NCBI GenBank assembly: GCA_963702895.1
Contig: OY969767.1
Location: 2,418,398-2,482,397 of the forward strand
Source of the DNA: an uncultured Elusimicrobia bacterium
Lineage (GTDB): Bacteria > Elusimicrobiota > Elusimicrobia > 2-01-FULL-59-12
Direction of reading: 5' to 3'
DNA length: 64,000 nucleotides
The notes below the pieces were generated by a model. That model did not search any database, had not been told where the DNA came from, and saw only the letters and a program-made list of their open reading frames with translations. Position numbers and translations under genes: made by a program. Position 1 is the first letter of the stretch, and each line of letters opens with the position of its first letter. This document shows, piece after piece, positions 1-44,147 of this stretch.

Positions 1-3000
1 TTGACCTCGATCACCCGGACATCGAAGACTACATCAACTGGAAGGTCAAAGAAGAGCAAAAGGTGGCGGCTTTGGTCGCTGGGTCCAAGCTCTGCAAAAA
101 GCATCTGAACGAAATCATCAAAGCCGTTCACGCCTGGCCGGAAACCTCCGAGAAGCTTGACCGTAAAAAGAACACGCGCCTGGCCGCCGCCATCCGGGCC
201 GCCAGCGTCTCCATGGTCCCTCTGAATTACGTGGAGCGCGTCCTGGAGCTGGCCGCCCAAGGCGTCATCGAGATTGATTTTGACGAGTACAACACAGACT
301 GGACCTCGGAAGCTTACATCACGGTCTCAGGCCAAAACTCGAACAACTCGGTTCGCATCCCGAACGCCTTTATGGAAGCTCTGCTCGCGGATGGCGATTG
401 GCCGCTCTTCTGGCGCACAGAAAAGGAAAAAGCGGCCAAGGAAAAGCGTGATCCGAAGCCCTACCGGTCCGTCAAGGCAAAAGAACTCTGGGATCAGATC
501 TGCTACGCCGCATGGGCGTGCGCGGACCCTGGCCTGCAATTTGACACGATCATCAACGACTGGCACACCTGCCCCTCGGACGGCCGTATCAACGCTTCCA
601 ACCCCTGCGTGACAGGAGACACCCTCGTTTCCACCACGCAAGGCTATCGCAAAATCATTGATCTTGTGGGTCAGGAAGTTGAAATTGTGGCAGGCGATGG
701 ATCCTCGAAATGGATCAGCCAGGTTTTTCCCACCGGCCATCAGCCTATCTATGAATTAAAAACCGTCTCGGGCTATACCCTCCGTCTCACGGCGGACCAT
801 CGTGTTCTGACTGCCAACCGAGGGGATGTGCGAGCCTGTGAGCTGAGCCAAGACGATTGCGTGGTGTTAGGTCATGTGGGTTTTGGACCCGAATCGCTCC
901 CCAGCGCCGTGGCGGAGGTCATTGGTCTGGCCATCGGCGACGGATGCATTAATTCCGATGGCTATCTCATGATCAACATGGACCGCCTTCAGGAACAGAG
1001 GGTTCTGGAGGCCGCCTCGCGCACCATCAACGCTCTCAAACCAAACAAATTTGGAACGGTTCACTCTGGCGGCACGACCGCGCGGGTCGCGACCTGCGCC
1101 CCTGAGATTGTGCAAGTGGCGGACCACTACGCGGTGTTGGACCAGGGATCTGCCAAGAAGCAATTTTCGGACGCCGTTTGGTCTCTCAATAAAACCAGCC
1201 AGGCCGCTCTTCTCCGAGGTTTGTTCACGTCCGACGGAACGGTGGCCCATTATGGGGAGAAGAGCCACTATGTTGCGCTGGACAGCACTTCTCTTCTCCT
1301 TCTCCAGCAAGTTCAACAGCTCCTGCTTGGCTTCGGCATCAAGGCAAAGATTTACGAAAATCGTCGTGTTGCCGGCAATACCGTTTCTCTGCTTCCGGAT
1401 GGCAAAGGAGGCATCAAGCCTTACGCGGTTCAACAGATCCATTCCCTAAGAATCTCACGATCCTCTCGCCTCCTCTTTCAAAAGGAGATTGGATTCTTGC
1501 CGGATTCCCCAAAAACGGAAAAGCTGGCCGAACTGAATCGATCGATCAGCGTGTACGCGGATGTGATGGTCGATGAAGTGGCATCGCTTGTCCCTTGCGG
1601 TTCCGCTGATGTCTTTGATCTGACAGAACCCCAAACGCATCACTTTGTTGCCAATGGACTGGTGGTTCACAACTGCTCGGAGTACATGTTTCTGGACGAC
1701 ACGGCCTGCAATCTGGCCTCCATCAACCTGATGAAGTTCTACGACACCACCACGGCGCGCCTGGACATTGAAGCCTATCGCCATGCCGTGCGCCTGTGGA
1801 CGATCACCCTGGAAATCTCGGTGACCATGGCCCAATTTCCTTCCTACCCCATCGCGGAAAAATCTTACCTCTATCGGACGCTCGGTCTGGGGTACGCCAA
1901 CCTGGGGGCGCTCCTCATGGTTCAAGGGATCCCTTATGACTCCGACCGAGGGCGCGCGATCGCTGCGGCGCTGAGCGCCATCATGCACATGGGCGCCTAT
2001 GCGACGTCGGCCGAAATGGCTTCCGCGATCGGACCGTTCCCGCGCTTCGAGGCCAACCGAGACGCGATGTTGCGCGTGGTTCGGAACCATCGGCGCGCGG
2101 CCTACCCGACGAAGCGCGAAGACTACGAAGCCTTGACGGTCACGCCGCAGCACATCCGTCCTGAACACTGTCCGGAAGATCTGCTCAAGGGTGCACGCGA
2201 GGATGCGGACCGGGCCCTGGTGATGGGCGAACAGTTTGGGTACCGCAACGCACAGGTCACCGTCATTGCTCCGACGGGAACGATCGGCCTTTCCATGGAT
2301 TGCGACACGACGGGCATCGAGCCGGATTTCGCCCTGGTGAAATTTAAGAAACTGGCTGGCGGCGGCTATCTCAAGATCATCAATCAGACGGTTCCTCCGG
2401 CCCTGAAGACGCTGGGCTACACCACCCTGCAGGTCGACGATATCGTGCGCTATTGCAAAGGAGCCGGCACCCTCAAGGGCTGTCCCCATATCAACCCGGA
2501 CGCACTCAAGACAAAGGGCTTTACCGATGAGGTGATCGCCAAAGTCGAATCCGCGCTGCCCCAAGCCTTTGAAATCGGCTTCGCGTTTAACCAGTGGACC
2601 CTGGGAGAACCCTTCTGCAAAGAAACACTGAAAATCACGGAGGAGCAACTCCATGACTGGAGGTTCTCGATCCTCAAGCACATGGGTTTTTCGCAAGACG
2701 AGATTGCCATCGCGAACGAATACGTCTGCGGCACGATGACCCTGGAAGGAGCTCCACACCTCAAAGCCGAGCACATGCCGGTCTTTGACTGCGCCAATCG
2801 ATGCGGCGCCAAAGGCAAACGCTATATCGCGCCGCTCGCCCACCTGAAGATGATGGCCGCCGCTCAACCCTTCATCTCGGGCGCCATCTCCAAGACCATC
2901 AACCTCCCGCACGAAGCGACGCTTCGGGACATCAACGAAGCCTATGTGGAGTCCTGGCAGTTGATGCTCAAGGCGGTCGCGCTCTACCGCGATGGGTCGA

Positions 3001-3905
3001 AACTCTCTCAACCGCTGAACACCACCTCGGATTCCAGCGGCGACTCCACGATCACGATGGCGGACCTCCAGGAAGGGCCGCTCAAGATATCGGAGAAGAT
3101 TATTCACCGCTATATCGCGCGGCGCCGCCGGCTTCCTTATCGACGCTCCGGCTACACCCAAAAAGCCAAGATTGGGGGCCATACCATTTACCTTCGCACG
3201 GGGGAATACGAAGACAATGCCCTCGGCGAAATCTTCATCGACATGCATAAGGAAGGCGCGGCCTTCCGGAGCCTCATGAACTGCTTTTCCATCGCGATCT
3301 CATTGGGGCTTCAGCACGGTGTGCCGCTCGAAGAATTCGTGGAAGCCTTTGTTTTTACGCGTTTTGAGCCCAACGGGATGGTCCAGGGCAACCCGCAGAT
3401 TAAGATGACAACCTCCATCATCGACTACATCTTCCGGGAGCTCGCCATTTCCTATCTCAACCGGCAAGATTTGGCCCAGGTGACCACGGAGGACCTGCGT
3501 GCTTCTTCCGTCGGCGATCCGGGCGTACAACAGCCGGACTTCTCCGAAGAAGAAGTGGTGAGCGAACGCGTGGTGGACCCCAAGGACATGGCCCAGGTCT
3601 CGCCGACGCATGTGCCCAAGTCGACCCACCTCTCGAACGTGCAGCCCACTCCTCCGGGGCAAGGCACACACGCCATACCCATCAAGAACCAGGCGTCGGC
3701 GGGGGCCTCTTCTGCCGCGTCTTCGGCCGTTTCCCCTGCCATTGGATTCCGACCCCAAATGTCCGCCTTGGCAGACAAGGCCCGCGAGGCCAAGCTCAAA
3801 GGGTATGAAGGGGATCCCTGCCGAGAATGCGGCCAATTCACAATGGTCCGCAATGGCACCTGCCTGAAATGCGATACGTGCGGCACAACATCAGGATGTT
3901 CTTAA
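1..3905 (+). CDS. nrdJ: Class II (adenosylcobalamin-dependent) ribonucleotide reductase, 5'-truncated at window edge, interrupted by an intein
   Basis: Reading frame is open to the window start (frame 3, no upstream stop). Extein shows an RNR-like NPC(S)E active-site motif that is split by the insertion, class II-like blocks ([25 protein letters not shown]; [27 protein letters not shown]) and a C-terminal Cys-rich ribbon ([25 protein letters not shown]). Confidence 0.85.
606..1673 (+). other. Intein (Hint domain with LAGLIDADG homing-endonuclease motifs) inside nrdJ, 356 aa
   Basis: Insertion starts with Cys directly after INASNP and ends GLVVHN followed by Cys+1 (CSEYMFLDD). Contains LAGLIDADG-type motifs [13 protein letters not shown] and [12 protein letters not shown]. 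Removing it restores a contiguous NPCSE motif. Confidence 0.8.
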
Positions 3906-8994: not shown

Positions 8995-10157
8995 CAACTG
9001 CAGCGTAATATGAAAGCGGGCCTCAAGAGAGTTATAAACAAGGCTGTCGGTAAAGACACCTTAATAACCCCAGGAGGCCCAAAATCATGATATCCATCGG
9101 CATTGATCATCACAAGAAGTATTGTCAGGTTGTGGCTATGAGGGAGTCTGGCGAGATTGTATGGGAAGGTCAAGTCCCCACACGGCGAGAAGGTCTTGCA
9201 CAAGTTAAAGAGGCGATTCCTCCAGGAGAACCGGTGCAAAGTGTATTGGAATCTGGACGGAGCTGGGGCATTGCCTATGACATTCTGGAAGATCTCGGGA
9301 TGAATCCGGTGTTGGCCAATCCTTATAGATCACGATTGATCGCCGACTCGTTTATCAAAACAGACAAAATCGATGCAACGGCACATGCCCTGCTGCTACG
9401 TTTGGGGGTGACCCCAACAATCCACGTGCCGAGTCGAGATCGGCGGGAACAGAAAGCGCTATTGCGGCACCGACTATGGCTAGTGAAGGGACAAACGGTG
9501 ATCAAGAATCGAGTTCATGATTTACTCGACCGACTTCATGTTGACGTTCCCGAACGAAGCGACTTGTTTGGAGCGCATGGCCGGGCGTGGCTGAAGGCTT
9601 TGGAGCTTCCGGAGATGCACCAGCATTTATTGAGATCCCACATGGCATTGCTCGATGAGATTCGCGTCCAAATTCGAGCGACAGAAGAATGGATTGATCG
9701 GGTTTTAAGGGATCACCCTTTGCGCGAGCTTGTCGATTCATTTCCTGGGGTCGGCAAGATCTTAAGTGCTCTGATGGCCTTGGAAATTGACACCATTGAA
9801 CGGTTTCCGACGGCTGCGCGGTTTGCATCGTACTGTGGCGTGGTGTGTAGTACCTACAGTTCAGGGGGTAAGACGTATCACGGAGGATTGATCCCGTCTT
9901 GTAACCGCTATTTACGCTACGCATTAATCGAGGCCTGTTGGACGGCTGTATCTGTATCACCGTACTTTAAAGCCTTTTATCAGCAACGAAGAATTCGAAA
10001 GCTGTCATCGGTCGCTATTGTGGCAGTGGCCAGAAAGATGGCAGAGATCATGTGGGTATGCCTGAAGAACAAGAGGAAGTATAAGGAAAAGATGTATCGA
10101 TTTGGTCGAGTCGCCTTGGCGAAATCTTAACGGAAGCCGCGTTTAACTGCAGCGTAA
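8995..10157 (+). mobile_element. IS110-family insertion sequence (approximate boundaries)
   Basis: Contains a DEDD-type IS110 transposase ORF. Region is flanked by a 13-bp direct repeat AACTGCAGCGTAA (about 8995-9007 and 10145-10157), lacks obvious terminal inverted repeats as is typical for IS110, and is lower in GC than its surroundings. Confidence 0.6.
9087..10130 (+). CDS. IS110-family transposase
   Basis: N-terminal ISIGIDHHKK (GIDxxK-type DEDD start) and C-terminal block FPGVGKILSALMALEIDTIERFPTAARFASYCGVV..SGGK typical of IS110/IS1111 transposases. Confidence 0.85.
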   Translation: MISIGIDHHKKYCQVVAMRESGEIVWEGQVPTRREGLAQVKEAIPPGEPVQSVLESGRSWGIAYDILEDLGMNPVLANPYRSRLIADSFIKTDKIDATAHALLLRLGVTPTIHVPSRDRREQKALLRHRLWLVKGQTVIKNRVHDLLDRLHVDVPERSDLFGAHGRAWLKALELPEMHQHLLRSHMALLDEIRVQIRATEEWIDRVLRDHPLRELVDSFPGVGKILSALMALEIDTIERFPTAARFASYCGVVCSTYSSGGKTYHGGLIPSCNRYLRYALIEACWTAVSVSPYFKAFYQQRRIRKLSSVAIVAVARKMAEIMWVCLKNKRKYKEKMYRFGRVALAKS

Positions 10158-13589: not shown

Positions 13590-15023
13590 ATGGGACGCGG
13601 TAAAAGATGGCCCATCGTGCTACTGTTGCTGCTGCTTCTTTTGGGATTTCTGTGGTGGCGCTTCTCTCGTCTTCAAAAGCCGGAGACTCTCCCGCCACCC
13701 CCCGTCATGCCATCGAGCGTGACCACCGTGACGCCGCTTCCGGAGCCGCCCAAACCAACACCGGCCGTCCGCCCGAAACCGGCCCCGACCACGAGCACCG
13801 GGGCCCCTGTGGCTCCAAAAGTCAAGCTCCACAAGGAACTGATCCCTAAGAATATCGAAATTGTGCGCTGCTATTATGCCGCTGAGGTGATCCCTCCGGG
13901 AGCCACGCTTGGCTTTGATATCAATGGATCGGGCTTCACCAGTGAATTTGAGAAAATGATCCGGGTGGATGCGGGACATGAACATGTCTCCGTCAAGAAT
14001 CTGTTGCTGGTCACCGCCAATCAGATTCATGGAGAGATCGTCGCAGGCGAGCGCGCGAAAACAGGTTTTGTCTTTCCTCGCGTCCTTATTAAAGGGCTAC
14101 CCGTGTTTAGCGCTCCTGAGCCTTTCGCCATTGTGCGAAAAGGCGAGGTCCTGACTGTGTTTTTCACCAGCATGCAAGAGAATGGGCGCGGTGGGAAATT
14201 TCGCGTGATTACCCATCTTGATGAGAAGATGGCCAAGACCTTTCGCATTGAACCCAGCACGCCCGGCATCGTTGTTTCCGAGATTGAGCCAGAACTTCCT
14301 TATTTAGTGCATGGTTCCATGCAGATCACGCCCGGTGTCCCTCCGGGCGATCATGGTCTGACCATGTCGATTCATGGGAAGGAGGTCTTCAAACGTATGG
14401 GGATGATCCGCATTGTGCGACCCAACGTTGGGCAGCTGGGCTTTATTCAGAATTTGTCGGCGGAGGAACGGTATCATCGCCCTGGTGACATGATTCAAAT
14501 CTACGTTCAGGGAACTGGCCTCTCCGCGGAAGATGCGCCCAAACTCAGGGCCAAAGTCGAAGAATTTAATCTGGGCCAGGGCTCCTTCACTTATCTTTCC
14601 CCTTTTCAGATCAGGCTTGCTCTCCAAAGCCTGACCACGATGCCCCTGAAGTCCTACAGCGTGAAAATTCAGAATGAGTCCGGGACGGAGCTCTTTGAGA
14701 AAAAGAACCTGTTTGAACTTGTCCCTCCAAACTGGGTCAAGGGAGTGCAGGTATCCCCGCCTCTGAAAGCAGGAGGGAAAAGTCTCCTCAGAGTTATAGG
14801 GCGCGATTTGACCGAAGACTTTGCGACCGCGTTTCGCATCGAAGTCGATGAGTCTGGGATTACGCTGGGGCCCATCCAGCGCGAGAGCGCCACCACCCTT
14901 TCCGCCGACATTATGGCATCGGACGGGGTGGCGCCGGGCGACTATTGGCTGCATCTTTCAGCGCACCATGCCAAGATCAGTCCACCTTTTGGCAGTATCA
15001 TTAAAGTCGAAGCGTCCCACTAA
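13590..15023 (+). CDS. Hypothetical membrane-anchored protein with Pro-rich linker
   Basis: N-terminal hydrophobic anchor (PIVLLLLLLLLGFLWW), Pro/Thr-rich linker, then about 380 aa with no motif I recognise. Confidence 0.5.
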   Translation: MGRGKRWPIVLLLLLLLLGFLWWRFSRLQKPETLPPPPVMPSSVTTVTPLPEPPKPTPAVRPKPAPTTSTGAPVAPKVKLHKELIPKNIEIVRCYYAAEVIPPGATLGFDINGSGFTSEFEKMIRVDAGHEHVSVKNLLLVTANQIHGEIVAGERAKTGFVFPRVLIKGLPVFSAPEPFAIVRKGEVLTVFFTSMQENGRGGKFRVITHLDEKMAKTFRIEPSTPGIVVSEIEPELPYLVHGSMQITPGVPPGDHGLTMSIHGKEVFKRMGMIRIVRPNVGQLGFIQNLSAEERYHRPGDMIQIYVQGTGLSAEDAPKLRAKVEEFNLGQGSFTYLSPFQIRLALQSLTTMPLKSYSVKIQNESGTELFEKKNLFELVPPNWVKGVQVSPPLKAGGKSLLRVIGRDLTEDFATAFRIEVDESGITLGPIQRESATTLSADIMASDGVAPGDYWLHLSAHHAKISPPFGSIIKVEASH

Positions 15024-16164: not shown

Positions 16165-18660
16165 TCACTCTTCTCTCTTCGTTTTCCGCCCTGGGGTCGC
16201 GGCGGGAAATTCTTGTTCCATTCCTTTGCGGATCTTCCGGACCGTCTCTTCCGCGGCGCGCTTCATGCGCCCGTCATAATCACCCGTCGTGTATTTCATA
16301 AGAGCGTCGGTTGCGCGCTCATCGGCAAACGTCCCCAGCGCCCGGACCGCGGTCAGTTGAACAAGGAGGTGCTTGTCTTCCAGCAGCCCTACCAAATGGT
16401 TCTGGACGTCCTCGCGCCCGCCTCGCCCCAACGAGGCAAGCCTTCGGATCGCCGTCATGCGCACATGGGGATGGTACCCCGAGCGGCTGTATTGCTTAAG
16501 AATCGCGCGAGATTCCGCTAACTGGAGTGAGCCGATGGCATCGAGGGCTGCGCACCGGAAAGTGTCATTCCAAGATTCTTTCTTCAAGTACTCCTTGAAG
16601 AGGCTGAGGAGGGAGGGATCTTTCATGCGGCCCAGAGAGCGGAGCGCTTCGCTTTGCGCAAAGTAGCTTTTTTCATGGGGCAGCCCAGAACGGATTTCTG
16701 CCTCCACTTTGGGAGTGGGGTAGGACCCGAGCGCTTCATAAATGGCCCGTCGCACTTTGGGATGCTGGATCTGGCGCAAAGCCTCGAGCAGCGCCTCCGC
16801 GGCCCCCGCCATGCCCGCATGGCCTAAAGCGCGGGCGATGTTCACCTGAACACCCCAAAATTGTTCCTTGAGAAGCGCCTGGCGAAGCGCCTGGACCGCG
16901 GAGGGGCTCGCAAGACGCCCCAGGGCGGCGGCCGCGTCCACCCTTCCCAGAAGATGAGGGTCCTCGGTGAGCTGGACAGCCCACATCTCTTCGGACTTGG
17001 CGAAATCAACTCGCTTGAGCAAACCATGATCGGGATCAAAGAGGATGAGCCGAGGCGGCGCGGACAACGTGTAGCAAAAGAGCTGGTCCTTCTTGTCGAG
17101 GGTTCCCTTAAATCGTCGAGAGACCCCCCCCACATCGACAGCCCATTCCACGGGGAGCGTGTAAAGCGGCGTTTCATCATTGACCGTCTGGGTTTGCAGG
17201 ACCCTCAAGTTCAGCTTTCTTGATTTCGCGTCCCACCAGGACCGGATCTTGATCTCGGGATGGCCTCCCTTGTAGACCCATTGGTCAAAGAACGACCGCA
17301 TGTTCCTGCCGGTGGCTTCCTGAATGGACTCAATGAGGTCGATCGTTTCCACGCCTTGAGCTTTGTGGCGCGCGAGGTAGGTATGAATAGAGCGCCACCA
17401 GTCCCGGTCCCCTAACAGGCGCCGGATCATGTGCAAAATGCATGCCCCCTTCTCGTAAAGGTGACGGTCAAAGAGATCGTTCGTGTTTTTATACAGTTTG
17501 GTCGAAAGCGGCCGACGGTAGCGGTCTTTGTCCTCGTCAAAATAGGTCTCGGCATTCGTGCGCATCTCGTACATAAACTCATCATGGCCGAGATCATGCT
17601 CACGGAAAAGGGCCTCAAAATAGGTGGCAAAGCTTTCATTGAGCCAAGCATGCGACCAGTCCTTGCAAGTGACCAGATCGCCAAACCACTGATGGGCAAG
17701 CTCATGCGCCACCAGAGGGTCGCTTGTGAAATCGAGATGGGCCCGCTCATCATGCAGGGTCAGCGCCGTTTGGGTGGTGCAGGAGGTGTTCTCCATTCCT
17801 CCATAGATAAAATCGATTGCCGCGACCTGCGCGTATTTCGCGTAAGGGTAAGGAACTCCCAGTTTTTTGGAAAAGAAATCGATCATTCTGGGGGTGTTGC
17901 CAAAAGCGCGCTTGGCGTCTTCTTCCCGGCCCGCAGGACAGTAATAGAGCACAGGGACCCTGCCCCAACGGTCTTTGATTTCGCTGAACTCTCCCACGGC
18001 CAGCGAGACCAAATAAGGGGAATGGGGTACATTCTGTTTCCAGTGGAAGGTCCGGGTGGCACCCTTACGCTGGACGCCCAGCAAGGCCCCGTTGGAGATG
18101 GCCGTGAATCGGGAGGGCACGCTCACGATCATTTCTGTGGTCGTTTTCTCCTGCGGGGCATCATGGCAAGGAAACCAGTAACGGTTGTATTCGTCTTCGC
18201 CTTGGGTCCAGGCCTGAAGGGGCTTCTGGGGATAGTGCCGATCGGGACCGATGAAGTGGAGCCCGAGCTTAGGCCGAACGACCCGATAGTCAATCGTGAC
18301 TTCCAGGGAAGCTCCGCGGCGCACTGGCGTCGGCCACTTGATCTTGAGCTCGCGGCCGGAATAGGTGAATGGAAGTCTCTTGCCCTTGGCGCTGACGCGT
18401 ACCTCGATGAAGTTGACCGCGTCGAAGAGGATGTCGGTCGCACCATCCGCGATGGCCACCAAAGATGAGGTGCAGCGTCCACGCAGCGATTGCTTTGAGA
18501 AATCGAGCGCTAACTCGAGCCGAATATGGCGGGTGTCAAAAAGACGGTCCGGGGCGTAATGCGGCGTGGCCCCCGGATAGGCAAAGCGGCCATCCGCTGC
18601 CCAGGCACCTGTATAGGCACGACATCGCATTTCTTCATTCACCTTCGTGTTCCTTTTCAA
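16165..18660 (-). CDS. M1-family zinc aminopeptidase (aminopeptidase N-like) with C-terminal HEAT repeats
   Basis: GGMEN exopeptidase motif, HELAHQWFG HExxH zinc motif with downstream NESFATYFE, then HEAT-like repeats. Confidence 0.85.
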
Positions 18661-18771
18661 TCATGGTCGCAAGGCCATGGGCAAGGCGGTGCGCTATTCC
18701 ATAACACCGAGCCGATGGCAGGCGGTCATTTTATCAATTTCTCGCTTTTTCAAACCTCTTGCAAAAACAAT

Positions 18772-19551
18772 ATGAATCAGCTACATAAAACTATGCGTCC
18801 AGGGCCACGAAAGCATAAGAGCTGTGTCTTCATCTCCGTTCTGTGTCTCTTGCTTCAAACCACCCTGCTCCAATGTGCGGAAACGCCCTTCACGCGTGTC
18901 TACGCGTTAAAGAATATTGAGGCTCCTATTGTTATCCAACTTCTCAATTTTTCCGTAGTGGATGCTTCAAAAAAACGAATCCTCTCCGGCCAGGGAAAGA
19001 GATTGGTTGTGACAGACACTGAGGCAAATCAAAATGCCATCGCCGAACTCTTGCCGATCATTGACCAACCCACGACGGAATCAGAACCACGGAAAATACT
19101 CATGGAAGCAGGTGTGCGGCTGACCAATTATCTCAACAGTCGTGCGAAGGAAAGAGAAGGATATGCTCCATCAGGGGCCTCTGCGATGACTGCCTTATCA
19201 CCCTCAGGACCAGCTCAAACCTATGATGACAGGAAGAGAACAGTTGCCTACAAGAGCGTCTACTCCAATGAGGACGAAATACTAAATAAGAAGACTCGTG
19301 TGATCACCAACGATCCGCCCCTTCCTTCAGTCGCCAATCTTACTCTCCAAGGAATATTTTTCATCAATCCTCGAACACCGATCGCACTTCTTTCCTTTCA
19401 GGGCACAAATTTTACAGCTCGCAACGGCGGTCTTTATTACAACAACAAGTCTCCCTTGAAGGGCATTTCCACGAAGGTTCTGAAAGACCGCGTTATTGTC
19501 ACAGGTCCCGATAGAATTCCTAGAGAAATCACTTTCAAGACCAGCCTATGA
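18772..19551 (+). CDS. Secreted protein with secretin-N-like domain
   Basis: Start moved to the ATG at about 18772; the longer track ORF would overlap the 5' end of the convergent aminopeptidase gene. Signal peptide SCVFISVLCLLLQTTLLQCAE. Domain VYALKNIEAPIVIQLLNF...RLVVTDTEANQNAIAELLPIIDQ resembles secretin N-terminal domains. Lower local GC. Confidence 0.5.
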   Translation: MNQLHKTMRPGPRKHKSCVFISVLCLLLQTTLLQCAETPFTRVYALKNIEAPIVIQLLNFSVVDASKKRILSGQGKRLVVTDTEANQNAIAELLPIIDQPTTESEPRKILMEAGVRLTNYLNSRAKEREGYAPSGASAMTALSPSGPAQTYDDRKRTVAYKSVYSNEDEILNKKTRVITNDPPLPSVANLTLQGIFFINPRTPIALLSFQGTNFTARNGGLYYNNKSPLKGISTKVLKDRVIVTGPDRIPREITFKTSL

Positions 19552-20045
19552 GAGTCCGGCAAACCATGAGACAGGGTCGTGGTGGGTGGATGCTGACCGA
19601 GCTACTCATTCTCCTTGTTATCGTGAGCATCATCTATTGCATTTTTCTAGCTTCCTACGATGCTTTACAGGCCAGACTCCGCTTTAACGTGGTCAAAGCC
19701 AATATGGACGCGATAAGCAAAGCTGCCTTTGTGGATTTCACTTCCAGCAAGGACCACGTATGGGCTCCTATGGTGGCTCCAGGCTCAGCTCCGAGTTTCA
19801 CAGCATCGCACCTCTCCAAATGGCCGGAACCACCCTGCCCTGGGTGGATGTATGGTTGGGATAATTATTACGGGGTGGCGACGGTCAAGGCCGTGCGCGT
19901 CACTGTTTATCAACGTAACGGGCATGCCCTTTGGAGCATTTGTTTAGAAAACTATGGCGGCGATTGTGAGGGAGCCGATATGTTTGGCGACAGCCCGACA
20001 GAACTGTCCAAAGTGACCGATCGCTACGTCTATTGCAACGAGTAA
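19548..20045 (+). CDS. Type IV pilin-like protein (prepilin-type N-terminal cleavage/methylation domain)
   Basis: RQGRGG|WMLTELLILLVIVSII: Gly at the cleavage site, Glu at mature position +5 and a hydrophobic helix. C-terminal Cys residues. Start overlaps the stop of the upstream gene. Confidence 0.6.
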   Translation: MRVRQTMRQGRGGWMLTELLILLVIVSIIYCIFLASYDALQARLRFNVVKANMDAISKAAFVDFTSSKDHVWAPMVAPGSAPSFTASHLSKWPEPPCPGWMYGWDNYYGVATVKAVRVTVYQRNGHALWSICLENYGGDCEGADMFGDSPTELSKVTDRYVYCNE

Positions 20046-20076
20046 TAGCCTTCCTTTCCTTTTGTAGAATGCGGCG

Positions 20077-21156
20077 GTGTCCATACCGCCATTAAAAATC
20101 CCTTCCTTTCCCTCCAGCGCTTCCCAGGCTCTCGAACAATCTCCTTTCATGAGGGCCTGTCGCAAGGAAACCGTGCCGTATACGCCCATTTGGCTCATGC
20201 GCCAAGCGGGGCGCTACATGAAGGAATACCGCACGCTCCGGGAAAAACATGGATTTGTCGAGCTCTGCAAGAATTCGGATCTGGCCTGCGAAGTCACCGT
20301 GTACGCGGCAGAGCGTCTCAAGGTCGATGCGGCCATCATCTTTTCTGATCTGCTCCTGATTCTCGAGCCTATGGGGATTCAGCTGGAATATTCCAAGGGG
20401 GAGGGTCCTGTCATTGGAAATCCCATTCGCTCCTCCAGCGACATCGAACGGCTGCGCGCTTTTTCCGATCCTGCCTCGCTTTCTTTTGTTTTCGACGGCC
20501 TCCGTAAGACACGTCAAGCGCTTCCCTCTGAAATTCCTCTGATCGGGTTTGCAGGCGCACCGTTTACGCTGGCGTCCTACATGATCGAAGGCGGCGGCTC
20601 GGATCATTATCTCCACACGAAAACGCTCATGCGCGGCTCCCCCCGGGACTGGAACGCTCTGATGGTGAAACTGTCCCAGTCTCTGGTCGGCTATCTCAAT
20701 GGCCAAATCGCGGCGGGGACTCAATGCGTCCAGCTCTTTGACAGCTGGGTGGGGTGCCTGAGTCCCGCGGATTACAAAACCTACGTTCTCCCCCACGCCC
20801 AATACGTCATTCGCCACATCACTCCAGGGGTCCCCGTCATCCATTTCGGGACGGGTACAGCGGCGCTCTTAGAACTCATGAAAGAGGCAGGAGGAGACGT
20901 GATCGGCCTGGACTGGCGTGTGGAACTGGGGGAGGCTTGGAACCGGCTGGGATCCGTCGCCGTCCAGGGAAATATGGATCCTGTTTTTCTCTTAAATGAT
21001 GTGGCCGCGATCCGGCGAGAAGCCAAGCGCATCCTCGATCAGGCCGCCGGCCGTCCGGGCCACATCTTTAACCTTGGGCATGGCGTTGTGCCGCAAACGC
21101 CCGTCGATCACGCCAAGGCCCTCGTCGACGCGGTCCATGAAATGAGCCAGAGGTGA
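20077..21156 (+). CDS. hemE: Uroporphyrinogen decarboxylase
   Basis: TPIWLMRQAGRYMKEYR N-terminal signature. Track ORF begins at a GTG at 20077; the ATG at about 20149 is an alternative start. Confidence 0.85.
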   Translation: MSIPPLKIPSFPSSASQALEQSPFMRACRKETVPYTPIWLMRQAGRYMKEYRTLREKHGFVELCKNSDLACEVTVYAAERLKVDAAIIFSDLLLILEPMGIQLEYSKGEGPVIGNPIRSSSDIERLRAFSDPASLSFVFDGLRKTRQALPSEIPLIGFAGAPFTLASYMIEGGGSDHYLHTKTLMRGSPRDWNALMVKLSQSLVGYLNGQIAAGTQCVQLFDSWVGCLSPADYKTYVLPHAQYVIRHITPGVPVIHFGTGTAALLELMKEAGGDVIGLDWRVELGEAWNRLGSVAVQGNMDPVFLLNDVAAIRREAKRILDQAAGRPGHIFNLGHGVVPQTPVDHAKALVDAVHEMSQR

Positions 21157-36589: not shown

Positions 36590-37075
36590 CTCCCGGACCT
36601 GGGCGCCGCACGACCGGCGCTCGCCCGACTATAGTGTGTCGGGTGAACCTAGACGAAGTGCAAAACTCCCGGACTAGGATTCGAGCGCCACACTTCGGGC
36701 GCTCGCCCGACTGTTGTGTGTCGGGTGAACCTAGACGAAGTGCAAAACTCCCGGACTAGGATTCGAGCGCCACACTTCGGGCGCTCGCCCGACTGTTGTG
36801 TGTCGGGTGAACCTAGACGAAGTGCAAAACTCCCGGACTAGGATTCGAGCGCCACACTTCGGGCGCTCGCCCGACTGTTGTGTGTCGGGCGAACCTAGAC
36901 GAAGTGCAAAACTCCCGGACTAGGATTCGAGCGCCACACTTCGGGCGCTCGCCCGACTGTTGTGTGTCGGGCGAACCTAGACGAAGTGCAAAACTCCCGG
37001 ACTAGGATTCGAGCGCCACACTTCGGGCGCTCGCCCGACTGTTGTGTGTCGGGCGAACCTAGACGAAGTGCAAAA
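36590..37075 (-). repeat. Tandem array of six head-to-tail ~82-bp units (five 82-bp plus one degenerate 76-bp distal copy), each a tRNA-Gln 3'-end copy with a two-hairpin insert
   Basis: The motif CAAAACTCCCGGACTAGG recurs at a strict 82-bp period (36661, 36743, 36825, 36907, 36989, 37071). Units contain two perfect 7-bp hairpins, GCCCGAC-N8-GTCGGGC and GAGCGCC-N8-GGCGCTC. No unique spacers. Confidence 0.85.
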
Positions 37076-39432: not shown

Positions 39433-41820
39433 ATGACCATCACACCGCATTTTCGCCACTACCTGAGCCTCTTTTTGATGGCGATGAGCATCATTGTCTG
39501 GGAAATTTTGCTCACGCGCATCTACAGTGTGGTACTGTTCTACCATTTTGCGTTTATGGCTGTTTCGATTGCGATGTTTGGGCTCTCTATGGGCGCCGCT
39601 TGCGTCGCCCTGCAAAAAGTGGATCGTTCTTCAGAGTCTCCCCTGTCCGACCGTATGCTGGCAGCGCTCGGCCTGCTCACAGGGGTTCTCATGGTGCTGG
39701 CGATCACGTTGCAGTTAAGCTTGCCCATCCCGCCCACACGCAATCCGTGGCAGCTCTTTGGGGTACTTTTCCGAACGTACGTGCTTTCATCGCTTCCGTT
39801 TTTCCCGGCAGGGGCTTTTATATGTCTATTGCTTACGCGCTCCAAGCAAGTGGGACGGCTCTATGCTGTGGATTTGATCGCCGCAGGGCTTGGATGCGCG
39901 CTGATCCCCGTTCTTCTTTCAGTCTTCGGAGGCCCTGGGGCCACCCTGGTGGCAGCAGCGCTGGCCGGCGGTTCTGCTCTTTGTTTTCTCCCAAGGAAAT
40001 CACGCGCGTCCAGGGTGGCATGGCTTTTGGTCGTAGGGCTCTTGCTGGGGGCCTTGATCAACCGATCAGCCCAAGTCCTGCGCGTGCGTTGGCGGCACAA
40101 CGGCCCGGTTCCTATCCCTTTATTTGAAAAATGGAACTCCTTTTCGCGCATTATGATCCAGCCGGGCGGGTCCAGCAATCTGAATTGGGGAGTTGAAGAG
40201 ACCTGGAGACGTCAACTGACGCCGGCTCCTCAACTTCAGCTTGAAATTGACTCCGGGGCCGGGACCGCCATCACGCATTTTGACGGGAGACTGGAACCTC
40301 TTCGTTTTTTACAGTACGACATCACGTCGTTTGCTCATTACTTGCGGCCCCAATCCAAAGTGCTCATCATCGGGCCGGGCGGCGGCCGCGATGTGTTGGC
40401 GGCCTTAAGCTTCAAACAGGTCTCCGTGCATGCCGTTGAAGTCAACCCCTCTATTCTATACGCCGTCAATGACGTCTTCGGTGATTTCACGGGCCGCTTG
40501 AACAAACGCCCCGACGTTCACTTCGTGGTTGATGAAGGCCGGAGCTACTTACATCACGAACAACAACCCTTTGACATCATCCAAGCCTCCCTTGTGGATA
40601 CGGTGGCGGCCACGGCCTCTGGCGCCTATTCCTTTGTCGAAAACGGCCTCTACACCGTTGAAGCATGGCGGCTTTTTCTCCATCGGCTCACGCCGCGGGG
40701 CCTTCTGTCCTTTTCACGTTGGTATTTTGGGTCCACGACTTGGCCCGTGGAAGTGTGCCGCACGGTAGCGCTCGCCGCTGAAGCCCTCCGCCAGGAAAGC
40801 AAAAGACCTCAAGACCACATTCTGGTCATCCGCAACAGCAATTTGCGGCCGCCGAAAGAAGGCATCGCGACGGTCCTGGTCTCACGTGAACCCTTTTCAT
40901 CTTCGGACTGGGCCAAAGCTTTTGAAACATGCCGGCGGCTCCATTGCGAAATCGCTCTGGCCAAGGGACAAGGGGAACCTCTGCTCGCGTCCATCGTCGG
41001 GACCACCAACCCGCGCGCGCTGTACGCCGAACTTCCCTTGGACATCTCACCGCCCTCGGACAACAAACCTTATTTCTTTTTCCATGCAAGACTGCGGGAT
41101 ATTCTTCGGTTTCGTCAGAGCCCGCAATTCGGGGCCTCAGGCTTCAACTTGCCCGCCGTCCGCATTCTGGTCGAGTTAAGTTTGATTACGCTTGCTCTGT
41201 CCGCCCTCATGGTGGTTTGGCCCTACCGCATCCTAAGTCGCAGAACGTCTTGGGCGCCCGTGCCTGCTCGACGGTCTGTTGGGATGCCTTTCTATTTTGG
41301 ACTGATCGGTCTTGCTTTTATGTTCCTTGAAATTGGGTGGATGCAGCGCTTCAGCCTTTTCCTTGGTCACCCAACCTATGGGTTCACTGTGATATTGCTG
41401 GGACTTCTCGTCATGAGCGGTCTCGGGAGTTGGTGGGTCACTTCTACGAAGCTTTTGAGCGACCAATCGCGTCGGTGGATTCCATTGCTCCTCATTCCAC
41501 TTCTGCTCATCTCCAATAGGGTGGTCCAGATATTTTTGCCACAGTGGATGGGATCTCCCCTGGAGGTCCGCATTCTAATTACGCTGCTTTCGATCAGTCC
41601 TCCGGCGATCGTGATGGGCATGTTTTTCCCCCTGGCCATGGCGCCTGCTCAGCGCTGGATGGCGGACCGGGTAGGATGGCTATGGGCCATCAACGGCGCC
41701 CTGTCGGTGACAGGCTCCGTGCTCGCGATGGTTTGTTCGTTGGCGTTCGGCATCAGCGGGACTCTAATGCTGGGAACGGGCGCTTATTTCTTGGCTGCGA
41801 TCCTGCTTTTACTCCTCTAA
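39433..41820 (+). CDS. Membrane protein with central spermidine-synthase-like (SAM-dependent) domain flanked by transmembrane regions
   Basis: Multiple N- and C-terminal hydrophobic helices. Central VLIIGPGGGRDVLAALSFKQVSVHAVEVNPSILYAVNDVF ... FDIIQASL resembles the spermidine/spermine synthase fold. Confidence 0.7.
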   Translation: MTITPHFRHYLSLFLMAMSIIVWEILLTRIYSVVLFYHFAFMAVSIAMFGLSMGAACVALQKVDRSSESPLSDRMLAALGLLTGVLMVLAITLQLSLPIPPTRNPWQLFGVLFRTYVLSSLPFFPAGAFICLLLTRSKQVGRLYAVDLIAAGLGCALIPVLLSVFGGPGATLVAAALAGGSALCFLPRKSRASRVAWLLVVGLLLGALINRSAQVLRVRWRHNGPVPIPLFEKWNSFSRIMIQPGGSSNLNWGVEETWRRQLTPAPQLQLEIDSGAGTAITHFDGRLEPLRFLQYDITSFAHYLRPQSKVLIIGPGGGRDVLAALSFKQVSVHAVEVNPSILYAVNDVFGDFTGRLNKRPDVHFVVDEGRSYLHHEQQPFDIIQASLVDTVAATASGAYSFVENGLYTVEAWRLFLHRLTPRGLLSFSRWYFGSTTWPVEVCRTVALAAEALRQESKRPQDHILVIRNSNLRPPKEGIATVLVSREPFSSSDWAKAFETCRRLHCEIALAKGQGEPLLASIVGTTNPRALYAELPLDISPPSDNKPYFFFHARLRDILRFRQSPQFGASGFNLPAVRILVELSLITLALSALMVVWPYRILSRRTSWAPVPARRSVGMPFYFGLIGLAFMFLEIGWMQRFSLFLGHPTYGFTVILLGLLVMSGLGSWWVTSTKLLSDQSRRWIPLLLIPLLLISNRVVQIFLPQWMGSPLEVRILITLLSISPPAIVMGMFFPLAMAPAQRWMADRVGWLWAINGALSVTGSVLAMVCSLAFGISGTLMLGTGAYFLAAILLLLL

Positions 41821-44147
41821 GCCAATAATCCCCACGTGTGAAGGAGGTCCCCTTCATGCCGCCACCGGAACCCGATGTCGGTGCGGTAGAACATGTTGGG
41901 GATGATGATGGTTTTGACGCGGGAGTAGGCCTCGCGGTGGGCTTCTTCCATGGTGGACCCGGAACCGGTGATCACGAGCGCATACCCGTCGCGTCCCGTG
42001 ATCTTCCAGTCGCCGTCTTCGAGTTTGACGTCGCCAAGATGGATCCCGTCCATCCCAGGCTTGGTGAATATCACGACCGCGTCCTCGGAAAACTTGCGGA
42101 ACGTATCCAAGTCGGCAAAGGGCCAAGGAGGAAGCGCGATGACCACCCCCACCTGAAATCCTTTTTGTGTTTTGAGGTTATAGGGCTTTTTGTTAGCAAG
42201 CGCGTAGAGAAATTCTCCCCACGGGCTCTGGATGCCCTCCATTTGGATGCTGACCGTCGGGTAGCCAAAACGTGGGGTGATCTCCAAGGGGTAGACGTTG
42301 CGGGCCGTGGCGATGCAATTGATATCAAAATAACCCACGTAGCCTGCTTCTTTGAGGCGCGGCACCATTTTCTCGATCGTTTCGCGGTAGAGCCGGCTGG
42401 GTCCCGTCCAAAACATCGAGGTATTTCCACACCACAAAGGCTTTCCATTTCTCCTAACATAGAGCGTGTGATAAGGAACTGTGACACAGTAGACACGCCC
42501 TTTGTAATCAACCACGGTCGTATCTCTGCGGTCAAGCCACGCGTTTGTCTTTTGGATCCTTTCGATCACTTCGTAGCAGGGATGGACCTTTTGAAAGACT
42601 CTCGTTCCGATCTTGCCTCCACGACGTAAGCGCCGTTTGACGATTCCGACACGACCCATCTTGAGAAGCAGTTCTTGGACGTCGTCCGCTAATCGAGGAG
42701 AAGAGGTGTAGTAAATTCGAAAACCGGTGCGCTGTTTATTCCCGTCCCCTAAACACATATGGTCGAAGAGAATCGCTAATTGGCGAGGGGATTGCTCCTT
42801 GTATTCCGAGGGAATATATTTCGTGAGCGCGTGACCGAAAGGCTTAAGATACGCCCACAAGCGCTTGTCGTAGCATTTCCAGCCTCCTTTCACCTTTCTA
42901 AAACGGAATGGCAACCTTTCAATCGTCTCTTGAACGGCACGCGCCTTCCGGGCATTCACTTGAGAGATGCCGACCTGATAAGATTTCTCGGAAGTCCAGC
43001 CTTCCGCGAGCCAGAGCCCAAGGAATGCCAGCCAATGGTCCATCGCCATGAGCAAGGGCTGGAACTTGTCCCTGCTTAGGCCATGCCCAGAACGTCCTCT
43101 TAATGCAGGCAACGAAAACACGGCTTCTTCCTTGCCTTTCCAACAACCCGAGCGCGGCACCACAAATTGGTGGGGAAGATTTTTCGCTTTCACAAAGGTC
43201 CACTGTTTTTTCTTGCGATATCGCGTGGCTTCCTGGCCGAACATCTGGTGGTCGAGCGTCACAAGCAGATCGGTTGCTCGATTGCGAATACGGACCATTT
43301 TCTTGTGATGATCGAACTGAACAACAGCGGATGGTCTATGATATTCGATCTCATCGGACTCGGGGTTCACACTGGCAAAGCGATCCTCCAGAGAAACATC
43401 CCGAAATCTTTTCCAACCGCCCTGCGTAAGCACTTCCGTCTCCTCGTCATAACAGCCCATCTCTCCTGTAGAGGGGCCGATTTCACCGGCAAAGAGTTTC
43501 TTGTGCTCGAAGTTGATGCAGACGGGCATGATGAACTCTTGTCCATTGAAGAAACCACCGACCGCAACTTCAATACCTGAGACAAACTTTTGGATTTGCA
43601 GACGGCGCACTTTGGATCCCCAGCCGACTTTGTACCGGTCTAAAATCGCGACGACGTCTTTCCCGTCTTCTTCATGACCCACGAAAGAAAGGACTTTGTC
43701 GTTTTGCGCTTTGCCGGAGGGTTTCACCACGTAGCGGGCAGGATTTTTTATAACAAACTTGGTCGCTTCATCGAAGGAATCGAATTCCCAGGAGTCCGGG
43801 ATCGTGAGGCCCACGGCCTTCATCTCCTGAGCTCCGAAGTCGCGGTCAAGCTCCAAGCGATCTGAATAAGAAGATCCTCCGACCACGGGCTTGCCTTCTT
43901 TGCGCAGACGGTCCGCGATCGTCCCGAACGCGGCATCATCGATGATGATGAGGTCCGCCCAGTCTTTATGCGATTCCCATTCGTCCACTTTATCGAGAAA
44001 TCCATCATAGAGCACACGGTCGGCTTTGGACTGCACGAACCATTTGACGTTGTAGCCTTCGAGTTTGAGACGGTAAGCGAGGTCGCCCGCACAGGCCTCA
44101 AAGGAGAGGAAGAGAATATTTTTCGGTTTTCCGTTGCCGTTTGCCAT
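41817..44147 (-). CDS. Divergent PurD-like ATP-grasp ligase interrupted by an intein
   Basis: Extein matches the PurD family core (FEHKKLFAGEIGPSTGEMG; PLEITPRFGYP; C-terminal FYRTDIG) but lacks the canonical PurD N-terminal GGREHA motif. A 344-aa insertion sits between GEMG and TSMFW. Coordinates are from the ORF track; my hand reading of the printed sequence around 43440 and 44100 did not reproduce this frame exactly. Confidence 0.7.
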   Translation of the reverse strand: MANGNGKPKNILFLSFEACAGDLAYRLKLEGYNVKWFVQSKADRVLYDGFLDKVDEWESHKDWADLIIIDDAAFGTIADRLRKEGKPVVGGSSYSDRLELDRDFGAQEMKAVGLTIPDSWEFDSFDEATKFVIKNPARYVVKPSGKAQNDKVLSFVGHEEDGKDVVAILDRYKVGWGSKVRRLQIQKFVSGIEVAVGGFFNGQEFIMPVCINFEHKKLFAGEIGPSTGEMGCYDEETEVLTQGGWKRFRDVSLEDRFASVNPESDEIEYHRPSAVVQFDHHKKMVRIRNRATDLLVTLDHQMFGQEATRYRKKKQWTFVKAKNLPHQFVVPRSGCWKGKEEAVFSLPALRGRSGHGLSRDKFQPLLMAMDHWLAFLGLWLAEGWTSEKSYQVGISQVNARKARAVQETIERLPFRFRKVKGGWKCYDKRLWAYLKPFGHALTKYIPSEYKEQSPRQLAILFDHMCLGDGNKQRTGFRIYYTSSPRLADDVQELLLKMGRVGIVKRRLRRGGKIGTRVFQKVHPCYEVIERIQKTNAWLDRRDTTVVDYKGRVYCVTVPYHTLYVRRNGKPLWCGNTSMFWTGPSRLYRETIEKMVPRLKEAGYVGYFDINCIATARNVYPLEITPRFGYPTVSIQMEGIQSPWGEFLYALANKKPYNLKTQKGFQVGVVIALPPWPFADLDTFRKFSEDAVVIFTKPGMDGIHLGDVKLEDGDWKITGRDGYALVITGSGSTMEEAHREAYSRVKTIIIPNMFYRTDIGFRWRHEGDLLHTWGLLA
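42423..43454 (-). other. Putative intein with LAGLIDADG-like motifs inside the PurD-like gene (about 344 aa; boundaries approximate)
   Basis: Insertion begins with Cys (CYDEETEVLTQGG) right after the conserved GEMG loop and ends ...KPLWCGN followed by Thr+1. Internal motifs LGLWLAEGW and LFDHMCLGDGNK. The penultimate residue is Gly rather than the usual His. Confidence 0.6.

Follow-up and report, generated by a model that had tools for sequence, protein, structure and literature searches.

The locus examined here raises the question of whether two overlapping genes in an AT-rich segment of an uncultured Elusimicrobia genome were imported, and what a type IV pilin-like protein and its partner might do there. 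The window, i.e., the whole stretch of DNA analysed, spans 64,000 nucleotides. A preliminary description based on its letters proposed that the segment at 18700-20050 is a horizontally acquired minimal module.

Gene organization of the locus

The pair was described as lying between an aminopeptidase gene and the heme operon, and this position was borne out: one flank is an M1 aminopeptidase gene and the other is hemE, followed by hemH and hemY (the latter two read by eye from their translations). The features are as follows:

16165-18660, minus strand: M1 aminopeptidase with HEAT repeats, flank of the pair
18728..18795, no strand assigned: strongly conserved element (nucleotide alignment) in the spacer that separates the divergently oriented M1 aminopeptidase gene and ORF1
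18772..19551, plus strand: ORF1, predicted periplasmic protein, 259 aa from ATG 18772 or 252 aa from ATG 18796
18796..18888, plus strand: predicted Sec-type signal peptide of ORF1 (basic n-region, hydrophobic core, A-x-A-like site in orthologs)
18892..19074, plus strand: secretin N1-type ring-building domain of ORF1, beta-alpha-beta-beta-alpha
19087..19155, plus strand: conserved long helix of ORF1 after the N domain (AF2 and conservation pattern)
about 19156-19320, plus strand: disordered Ala/Ser/Pro-rich linker of ORF1, following the long helix
19333..19536, plus strand: PilP/GspC-HR-like beta-sandwich domain of ORF1 (predicted)
19548..20045, plus strand: ORF2, type IV pilin-like, 165 aa (sequence, family alignment, N_methyl in orthologs, PDB profile search, AF2)

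The ATGA at 19548-19551 forms the ORF2 start, overlapping the ORF1 stop. Both ORFs are real genes: ORF1 has orthologs at 41-59% identity (E 1e-43 to 8e-81), with 63 matches at E ≤ 1e-3 and 11 at E ≤ 1e-30 among 1.84 billion representative proteins, and the ORF2 family profile recovers 28 members (E 1e-21 to 1e-72). For ORF1, the start annotated in the database is ATG 18796 (P0003).

Predicted domain architecture of ORF1

In the alignment, the signal peptides of ORF1 orthologs finish with VQA, GHA, AQA or AWA followed by D or E, and cleavage would be of the signal-peptidase I type; the structural model places a low-confidence helix (residues 21-34) in this region. Neither a lipobox nor a conserved Cys was found in the ortholog alignment.

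The secretin N-terminal-type domain lacking a pore domain, noticed in the preliminary description, is supported by ortholog scores and the predicted fold. The window's own ORF1 scores below the threshold for Secretin_N (PF03958; 17.1 bits versus a gathering cut-off of 28.2), whereas two orthologs pass it (P0011, 33.4 bits; P0060, 30.0 bits), and the predicted ORF1 fold agrees with the assignment as an N1-type domain. With a length of 252-259 residues and no match to the secretin pore domain PF00263 in the Pfam scan, ORF1 does not qualify as a secretin.

Beyond the N domain, AF2 modeled the long helix (residues 108-130) with pLDDT 83-91 and residues 131-185 with pLDDT 43-62. The C-terminal domain was modeled with the HR/PilP beta-sandwich fold and is preceded by a Y-K-S-V-Y...D-P-x-L-P motif, which parallels the Y-x-Y...R-D-P-F of PilP. 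The PilP and GspC models of Pfam and NCBIfam matched neither ORF1 nor related small lipoproteins. Predicted structure, together with a weak, non-significant profile match to M. xanthus PilP (E 0.15), suggests that the domain is PilP/GspC-HR-like. The preliminary description did not mention this domain.

ORF2 as a type IV pilin-like protein

The N-terminus of ORF2 reads G13/WMLTE18 LLILLVIVSII, with Gly at -1, Trp at +1, Glu at +5 and a hydrophobic stretch. It has the class III signal-peptide motif, which would be cut after Gly13 (codon 19584-19586). G -1 and E +5 are nearly invariant in the 28 family members, and the window copy has drifted from the family consensus GFTLIEL (WMLTE versus FTLIE). 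The Pfam N_methyl scan (PF07963) gave no match for the window's own ORF2, whereas the cut-off of 21.2 bits was exceeded by orthologs P0013 (33.7 bits) and P0035 (36.6 bits), and many family members have a precomputed PF07963 match. Profile searches on the two proteins gave a divided answer, the window copies falling below threshold or going unmatched and the orthologs passing for both Secretin_N and N_methyl.

A PDB profile search with ORF2 matched type IV pilins only, over their N-terminal helices: Geopilin (6e-14), M. xanthus PilA (5e-11), PilE (2e-9) and GspG (1e-5). The AF2 model (pLDDT 90.5, pTM 0.78) has the long helix and beta-sheet of the pilin fold, with a 55-residue alpha-1 helix (12-66) and a three-stranded sheet (101-106, 116-121 and 127-134). 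Four cysteines are conserved in the family (Cys97, 132, 140 and 163), and the head carries the motif WPxPPCPGWxYxWDNW. A Foldseek search of the head domain against the PDB returned no significant match. Sequence and predicted structure together identify ORF2 as type IV pilin-like; G -1/E +5, the four cysteines and the ATGA overlap uphold the earlier reading of a prepilin-like gene that overlaps ORF1 and encodes C-terminal cysteines. An origin from a filamentous-phage pIV or coat protein was rejected, as PHROGs gave only E 0.05-0.07.

Composition and inheritance of the pair

The visible AT-richness of the segment was confirmed by windowed GC, which falls to 0.47-0.49 in 400-bp windows between 18600 and 19800 and lies at 0.53-0.64 on both sides; 18700-20050, with a GC of 0.487, ranks second lowest among 1253 sliding windows of 1351 bp. 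Composition is thus not uniform, and orthologs match both the pilin and the secretin domain. The main source of the dip is ORF1 (GC 0.476, GC3 0.48). Measured against the gene means of the window (GC 0.564, sd 0.029; GC3 0.657, sd 0.050), its z-scores are -3.0 for GC and -3.45 for GC3, the lowest of the 43 window genes and below the IS110 transposase. The suggested check of codon usage likewise singled out ORF1, whose synonymous codon usage is the most atypical in the window (z -3.28). As an islet of atypical composition, ORF1 alone qualifies: ORF2 is mildly low (GC 0.52, GC3 0.58, z about -1.5) and the segment has an ordinary dinucleotide signature after GC normalisation (rank 101 of 627), both lying within the normal range.

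The extreme composition of ORF1, with a codon usage comparable to that of the IS110 transposase (z -2.96), speaks for a minimal pilin/secretin-N module that was acquired horizontally at this site, with the aminopeptidase gene on one side and the heme operon on the other. Comparison with relatives, i.e., Elusimicrobiota-labelled genomes and loci, makes this highly improbable. The pair was present in every relative recovered (L001, L002, L003, L004, L006, L007, L013, L015/L016 and the P0011 contig), and at least eight carry it at the identical site. On every contig that reaches far enough, the M1 aminopeptidase gene precedes the pair in divergent orientation and hemE or hemD-hemE comes after it. 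The proteins encoded on either side share 64-82% identity with their window counterparts, versus 36-53% for the much faster-evolving pair, and the order of identities for the pair roughly tracks that of its flanks, L002 being the closest for hemE, YceI and ORF2. In three of six relatives (L001, L002 and L003) the dip is absent, the GC3 of the ORF1 ortholog equalling that of its neighbours. The hallmarks of a genomic island were rejected as well: no tRNA lies within 17 kb of the segment (the only one in the window is at 37075), flanking repeats are short chance matches only, no integrase or other mobility gene adjoins the pair, and presence at the site is not patchy among the relatives recovered.

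The synteny comparison called for in the preliminary description therefore runs contrary to recent import, and the idea of a horizontally acquired module is not sustained. Shared flanks, GC3 parity in L001-L003 and the missing island hallmarks instead make the GC dip a lineage-specific trait of a fast-evolving native gene, and the most likely reading of the low GC of ORF1 is relaxed or fast evolution. Judging from the sequences compared, the pair has been passed down at this very position across the related genomes rather than imported recently as an islet. Homologous recombination within the clade, with a member of lower GC as the donor, could conceivably have replaced the resident allele. 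By itself, a dip in composition is an unreliable sign of gene transfer; the one seen here marks a fast-evolving native envelope gene.

The four-base ATGA overlap is kept in the window, in seven independent loci and in the P0011 contig, which argues for functional coupling of ORF1 and ORF2.

A near-invariant upstream element

The 68-nt element upstream of ORF1 is 87-94% identical in nucleotides to L002, L003, L004, L006 and L013, versus 66-74% for neighbouring housekeeping coding sequences at the same loci and no detectable nucleotide similarity for ORF2. Its core, AAACCTCTTGCAAAAACAAYATGAATCAGCTACATA at about 18752-18787, shows no variation between the window and five independent loci, and the element is single-copy within the window. 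It may represent a shared promoter/operator or a translation-initiation region. A scan of 18500-20300 for sigma-70 promoters and terminators found none on the plus strand, and a TTGCAA-17-TACATA candidate picked by eye fails the scanner's -10 criteria. A structured RNA or riboswitch was rejected, with no Rfam match and an RNAalifold result of four invariant pairs at -0.2 kcal/mol. This strongly conserved element is absent from the preliminary description.

Missing machinery and the proposed role of the pair

The 36 largest of 43 ORFs in the 64-kb window were scanned for filament machinery. No match to the GspE/PilB, GspF/PilC, prepilin peptidase or secretin families was obtained among them, in agreement with the earlier remark that no ATPase, platform protein or prepilin peptidase is nearby. 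The same scan revealed no pilB/C/D/Q or pilMNO in these 64 kb of a 2.72-Mb genome and no cytochrome or T2SS gene, and the six frames of the window hold no second prepilin motif. In Elusimicrobiota genomes, pilD and dispersed type II/IV pilin genes are reportedly kept apart from complete clusters of machinery genes (PMC8809381).

We hypothesize, with moderate confidence, that the pair represents translationally coupled, vertically inherited accessory parts of a type IV filament machine encoded elsewhere, more probably of the type IVa pilus kind than of the type II secretion kind. The existence of this machine is assumed; the genes for its core (an ATPase, a platform protein, a prepilin peptidase and, should there be one, a secretin) would lie elsewhere in the genome. 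ORF2, as a T4a-sized prepilin, would be inserted in the inner membrane, cut after Gly13 by the prepilin peptidase, stabilised in its head domain by two disulfides, and polymerised via its long hydrophobic N-terminal helix with Glu +5. ORF1 would be exported to the periplasm by the Sec pathway. In known systems, the PilP/GspC-HR module links the assembly platform in the inner membrane to the N0 domain of the secretin by docking, and the N1-type domain is the ring-building domain that secretins stack in the periplasm. ORF1 could accordingly be pictured as a periplasmic adaptor or ring subunit, coupling the pilin assembly site to an outer-membrane conduit.

The absence of matched machinery in the window, the drifted, Pfam-unscored N-terminus of the window's ORF2 and its structurally unmatched head domain would also suit a pair working without any filament machine, e.g., with ORF2 as a membrane-anchored periplasmic or surface protein that has retained no more than a pilin-like anchor and ORF1 as its periplasmic partner or chaperone. 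This is quite unlikely, given that G -1 and E +5, needed for processing and assembly, are conserved through the family, and that PilP-like and secretin-N-like domains are known almost only from machines of this type.

The pair could instead belong to a type II secretion-like system, in which a pseudopilin and a GspC-like adaptor export proteins rather than build an extended pilus. In view of the conserved operon-like linkage with hemE-hemH-hemY, the cargo might be a haem protein, but the adjacency may be mere inherited gene order within one clade. ORF2 also matches type IVa major pilins (1e-9 to 1e-14) far better than GspG (1e-5; NCBIfam GspG E 0.19), ORF1 has neither the transmembrane anchor nor the PDZ domain of GspC, and the scan of the window matched no cytochrome or T2SS gene, so that we regard such a system as unlikely and retain the type IVa-like accessory role.

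A pilus role gives no account of why the pair is so tightly and conservedly linked, on the same strand, to hemE-hemH-hemY. A very unlikely extension would make ORF1 an undescribed class of soluble periplasmic adaptor, with a PilP/GspC-HR module fused to a secretin-type ring-building domain, forming with its dedicated pilin a lineage-specific filament sub-assembly co-regulated with late haem biosynthesis, the co-regulation operating via the near-invariant 68-nt element and probable co-transcription. Within this extension, the linkage could hint at a pseudopilus that exports or displays haem proteins; a comparable proposal exists for Geobacter PilA-N/C and cytochrome nanowires. The element and the haem-gene linkage together raise testable regulatory questions.

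Comparison with known filament and secretion systems

ORF2 was compared with the type IVa pilins PilA of M. xanthus (8tj2), PilE of Neisseria (2hi2/5kua), PAK pilin (1oqw) and Geobacter PilA-N (7tgg/2m7g). Like type IVa major pilins, it has a short basic leader whose last residue is Gly, a Glu at +5, a conserved hydrophobic N-terminal helix of about 55 residues, a predicted mature length of about 150 aa, a beta-sheet head and C-terminal Cys pairs. Unlike them, it has Trp at +1, a head with its own motif and four-Cys set that lacks significant sequence or Foldseek similarity to solved pilin heads, and ORF1 as the sole adjoining pilus-type gene. ORF2 adds to the known pilins a small subfamily that lacks annotation, from a phylum that has received little study; Pfam has no dedicated family for this subfamily or for ORF1.

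For ORF1, the references were PilP of N. meningitidis (2ivw/4av2_M), P. aeruginosa (2y4x) and M. xanthus (3jc8), and the GspC HR and GspD N0-N1 domains of the ETEC complex (3oss) and PulC (6hcg_e). In contrast to PilP, the lipoprotein of the T4aP alignment subcomplex, ORF1 has no lipobox and no Pfam PilP match, lies outside a pilMNOPQ operon, and carries at its N-terminus a secretin-type N domain and helix that are absent from PilP. It differs from GspC in having no transmembrane anchor, PDZ or coiled-coil domain and in lying outside a gsp operon, and it carries an N1-type N domain (Secretin_N) instead of the HR-binding N0 type found in GspD, the partner of GspC HR. The N1-type ring-building domain is shared with secretins (GspD/PilQ/pIV; PF00263 plus PF03958), whereas their pore, N0/STN and S domains are missing.

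Unlike GspC and GspD, ORF1 unites both modules, secretin N1 and the predicted PilP/GspC-HR, on one soluble 25-kDa protein, a previously undescribed domain combination. Should ORF1 indeed connect the site of pilin assembly with a secretin, nature would have provided a compact version of the alignment subcomplex that could suit structural work. These findings do not overturn the current understanding of type IV filaments. A 265-aa protein encoded next to a distant pilin relative (L008) matches the N domain and helix of ORF1 too weakly (hhalign probability 29%) to bear on this interpretation.

Layout and composition of the segment

The AT-rich segment at 18700-20050, which the preliminary description read as a probable horizontally acquired secretin-N/pilin islet, is filled by two + strand ORFs. 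As that description stated, the pair lies between an aminopeptidase gene and a heme operon:

16165-18660, upstream and divergent from ORF1: M1 aminopeptidase with HEAT repeats
18772 (ATG, MNQLHK...) or 18796 (ATG, MRPG..., the start used in the public annotation, P0003) to 19551, + strand: ORF1, periplasmic secretin-N-domain protein gene
19548-20045, + strand: ORF2, type IV pilin-like gene, its start codon and the ORF1 stop overlapping in ATGA
3' of ORF2, same strand: hemE (Pfam URO-D)
after hemE, same strand: hemH, then hemY, both named by eye from translations

The gaps downstream of the pair are 31, 3 and 0 nt (hemE, hemH and hemY in order).

Analysis in 400-bp windows revealed a GC of 0.47-0.49 at 18600-19800, versus 0.53-0.64 on either flank, and the GC of the whole segment, 0.487, ranked second lowest among 1253 equally long sliding windows, which confirms its AT-richness. 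The anomaly is mostly due to ORF1, with a GC of 0.476 (z = -3.0; 43-gene mean 0.564, sd 0.029), a GC3 of 0.48 (z = -3.45; 43-gene mean 0.657, sd 0.050) and the most atypical synonymous codon usage of the window (z -3.28), as the codon-usage comparison suggested for this segment bears out. ORF2 is just mildly low (GC 0.52, GC3 0.58, z ~ -1.5), and the dinucleotide signature of the segment, normalised for GC, does not stand out (rank 101/627). The GC of ORF1 falls below that of the IS110-family transposase gene at 9087-10130 (+). The latter, which encodes DEDD_Tnp_IS110 and Transposase_20 domains, comes second in the window both for low GC (0.50) and for atypical codon usage.

Synteny and descent of the pair

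Orthologs of ORF1 and ORF2 are rare and come from metagenomes alone; two of the MAG contigs bearing them are labelled Elusimicrobiota bacterium. ORF1 is followed by ORF2 with a 4-bp overlap in every recovered locus of related genomes (L001, L002, L003, L004, L006, L013, L015/L016 and the contig of the ortholog P0011), while the nanopore contig L007 carries ORF2 and an uncalled ORF1, detected by tblastn. Wherever contigs extend far enough, the M1 aminopeptidase gene lies divergent from the pair on one side, and hemE, either alone or fused to hemD, comes after it on the other. The YceI, RF-1 protein, 477-aa protein and ABC-F genes are also common to L002 and L007.

Amino-acid identity between the window and its relatives
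Aminopeptidase (pepM1): 72-76%
hemE: 64-82%
ORF1: 35-53%
ORF2: 36-46% (syntenic loci)

In L001, L002 and L003 the ORF1 ortholog matches its neighbours in GC3; its value dips slightly in L004 and L013, and clearly in L006 alone. No tRNA, repeat or mobility gene was found bracketing the segment. The atypical composition had prompted the reading of a horizontally acquired minimal module; this is not supported, and is contradicted by the relatives, where the pair and its flanks occupy the same site. Given the conserved synteny, the lower identity than that of the flanks, the GC3 of the orthologs and the lack of island hallmarks, the pair is ancestral to the clade and fast-evolving. The GC dip is lineage-specific drift or, at most, intra-clade allele replacement, and no mark of an inserted islet.

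In most relatives, a hemD-hemE fusion (613-662 aa) directly follows the pilin gene (L003 2782-4620; L006 3641-5584; L013 2776-4722; L015 8211-10199). The window and L002 encode hemE alone, without fused hemD, and positions 20077-20150 of the window still encode a vestige of the linker (FPSSASQALEQSPFMRACRKE, compared with FPRSSLENSPFMKACRRE in L006), which suggests from the sequence that hemD was lost here. The 477-aa protein (13590-15023, +) has an N-terminal membrane anchor and a proline-rich linker, matches no Pfam family, and is syntenic in L002 and L007 at 55-65% identity.

Domain architecture of ORF1

The N-terminus of ORF1 resembles a Sec signal peptide; in the ortholog alignment, an A-x-A-like site ends the signal peptide, with no conserved lipobox Cys. 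Three regions follow:

residues ~43-103: secretin N1-type domain, beta-alpha-beta-beta-alpha topology, model pLDDT ~90
residues 108-130: conserved helix, with a disordered linker after it
residues 190-257: C-terminal beta domain, pLDDT ~87, missed in the preliminary description

The window ORF1 scores 17.1 bits against Secretin_N, under the threshold of 28.2, which the orthologs P0011 (33.4 bits) and P0060 (30.0 bits) clear; in the PDB, the family profile matched phage f1 pIV at its N domain (E 0.005). A secretin pore domain was not found in ORF1. The proposed secretin-N-type domain without a pore domain is thus upheld by ortholog scores and model topology. On its own, the N domain matches genuine secretins as well as giant proteins in which Secretin_N-like repeats number up to 18. 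Among the latter, P0052 (2534 aa), P0058 (3162 aa), P0068, P0075 and P0076 contain 6-18 tandem stretches matching this domain.

ORF1 also bears a PilP/GspC-HR-like domain (HR, GspC homology region), which extends the earlier domain calls; the all-beta matches, we infer, belong to the C-terminal domain. An exhaustive HMMER search with ORF1 through 1.84 billion representatives detected just 63 proteins at E<=1e-3. Beyond the orthologs, ~30 of these are proteins of ~150-170 aa matching the C-terminal domain alone (P0056, P0059, P0061-P0063, P0070, P0072 and ~25 more). Those inspected have signal peptides, four with lipoboxes, and a YxYxGDRxRDPF motif; they have no Pfam or NCBIfam assignment and look like unannotated PilP-type proteins. 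In a joint profile, this motif and the next LxLKGI strand align non-significantly to M. xanthus PilP (E 0.15), and ORF1 has a parallel motif, YKSVY...DPxLP...LxLKGIF. The pairing of its two domains makes ORF1 a novel variation on known periplasmic adaptors.

ORF2 and its pilin family

The N-terminus of the window ORF2 reads ...GRGG/WMLTELLILLVIVSII, with Gly at -1 and Glu at +5. It does not match Pfam N_methyl and matches NCBIfam PilA weakly (E 1e-3). With a profile built from orthologs, 28 family members were recovered; their consensus is GFTLIELxIVVAIIGILA, and many of them are assigned PF07963. Two orthologs scanned reached 33.7 and 36.6 bits against the N_methyl cut-off of 21.2. The head carries a diagnostic motif, WPxPPCPGWxYxWDNW, and four nearly invariant Cys. 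The claim of an overlapping prepilin-like gene with C-terminal cysteines therefore holds, given the ATGA overlap, G-1/E+5, the four Cys and the orthologs above the cut-off.

Among PDB sequences, the profile matched type IV pilins alone, via the N-terminal helix alone (Geobacter PilA-N 6e-14, M. xanthus PilA 5e-11, PilE 2e-9, GspG 1e-5). The AlphaFold model (pLDDT 90.5, pTM 0.78) displays a 55-residue helix, then a three-stranded sheet; the head domain gave no significant Foldseek match. ORF2 is thus predicted, from motifs and model, to be a type IV pilin, and its family is a new pilin subfamily of known kind.

Distant family members (25-31% identity) have unrelated surroundings, where they stand by themselves or beside different partners. 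At L008 (6868-10820), the order is a 738-aa unknown protein, a 265-aa unknown protein, a distant pilin (25-28% identity range) and a 103-aa protein; the 265-aa protein has a precomputed T2SSF_N assignment and weakly resembles ORF1 in the N domain and helix. At L010 (202-2481), a PG_binding/PKD protein precedes two tandem pilins (25-28% identity range) and a 118-aa protein.

Proposed role of the pair

The Pfam search covered, along the full length of the window, 36 of its 43 largest ORFs, the seven outside it being hemH, hemY and five more that look like housekeeping genes. Among the 36, none matched the PilB/GspE, PilC/GspF, prepilin peptidase, PilMNO or secretin families, in agreement with the reported lack of an ATPase, platform protein or prepilin peptidase near the pair, and a six-frame regular-expression search found no second prepilin motif in the window. 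The matches included an intein-bearing ribonucleotide reductase, a histidine kinase, TPR proteins, IS110, an ABC-F ATPase, YceI, an ArfB-like RF-1 domain protein, hemE, glycosyltransferases, DsbD and GluRS. The ribonucleotide reductase gene (63-3905, +) carries Intein_splicing and LAGLIDADG_3 domains; a PurD-like GARS gene (41817-44147, -; 776 aa) is split by a LAGLIDADG_3 region and is likewise read as intein-bearing.

The best-supported reading treats ORF1 and ORF2 as detached parts of a type IV filament machine. An orphan pilin locus is unsurprising in this phylum, since Endomicrobia are reported to retain pilD and scattered type II/IV pilin genes, with complete clusters absent (PMC8809381), and pilins to be the sole appendage genes in Endomicrobiaceae (PMC11257099).

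The analysis shows the motifs and fold of a pilin in ORF2, both folds of ORF1, the translational coupling and strict co-occurrence of the two genes, and their vertical descent; the steps of the mechanism draw on established knowledge of the type IV pilus (T4P) and the type II secretion system (T2SS). A prepilin peptidase would cleave ORF2 after Gly13, and the pilin would polymerise through Glu+5 and the N-terminal helix; the four Cys would pair into two periplasmic disulfides. ORF1 would be exported by Sec; its PilP/HR-like domain could dock on the N0 domain of a secretin or on a comparable partner, and its N1-type ring-building domain may oligomerise with, or beneath, the periplasmic rings of the secretin.

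We slightly favour a type IVa (T4a)-like system over a T2SS, because the helix, leader and size of ORF2 are closer to those of T4a major pilins than to GspG and because the motif ahead of the ORF1 beta domain is PilP-like. A T2SS-like export role, possibly tied to the tightly linked haem genes, is a less likely alternative. The pair may also act independently of any machine, but such a role is hard to square with the conserved G-1 and E+5.

A conserved element upstream of ORF1

The intergenic DNA from ~18728 to the ORF1 start is conserved far above its surroundings. This upstream element (18728-18795) shares 87-94% nucleotide identity with relatives over 68 nt, compared with 66-74% for housekeeping coding sequences and nothing detectable for ORF2 in the same relatives, and a 35-nt core (~18752-18787) does not vary between the window and five independent loci. 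It is single-copy, with no RNA structure, Rfam match or scanner-called sigma-70 promoter. In its left part, an extended -10-like TGATAAAAT was noted by eye on the reverse complement, facing the aminopeptidase gene.

The start codon of the aminopeptidase is found ~10 nt to the left of it in several relatives, so the element is essentially the entire divergent control region; it could represent a shared operator/promoter or a translation-initiation region. Among the changes in L015 is a synonymous CTA to TTA inside MNQLHK, which suggests that these first six ORF1 codons may be translated.
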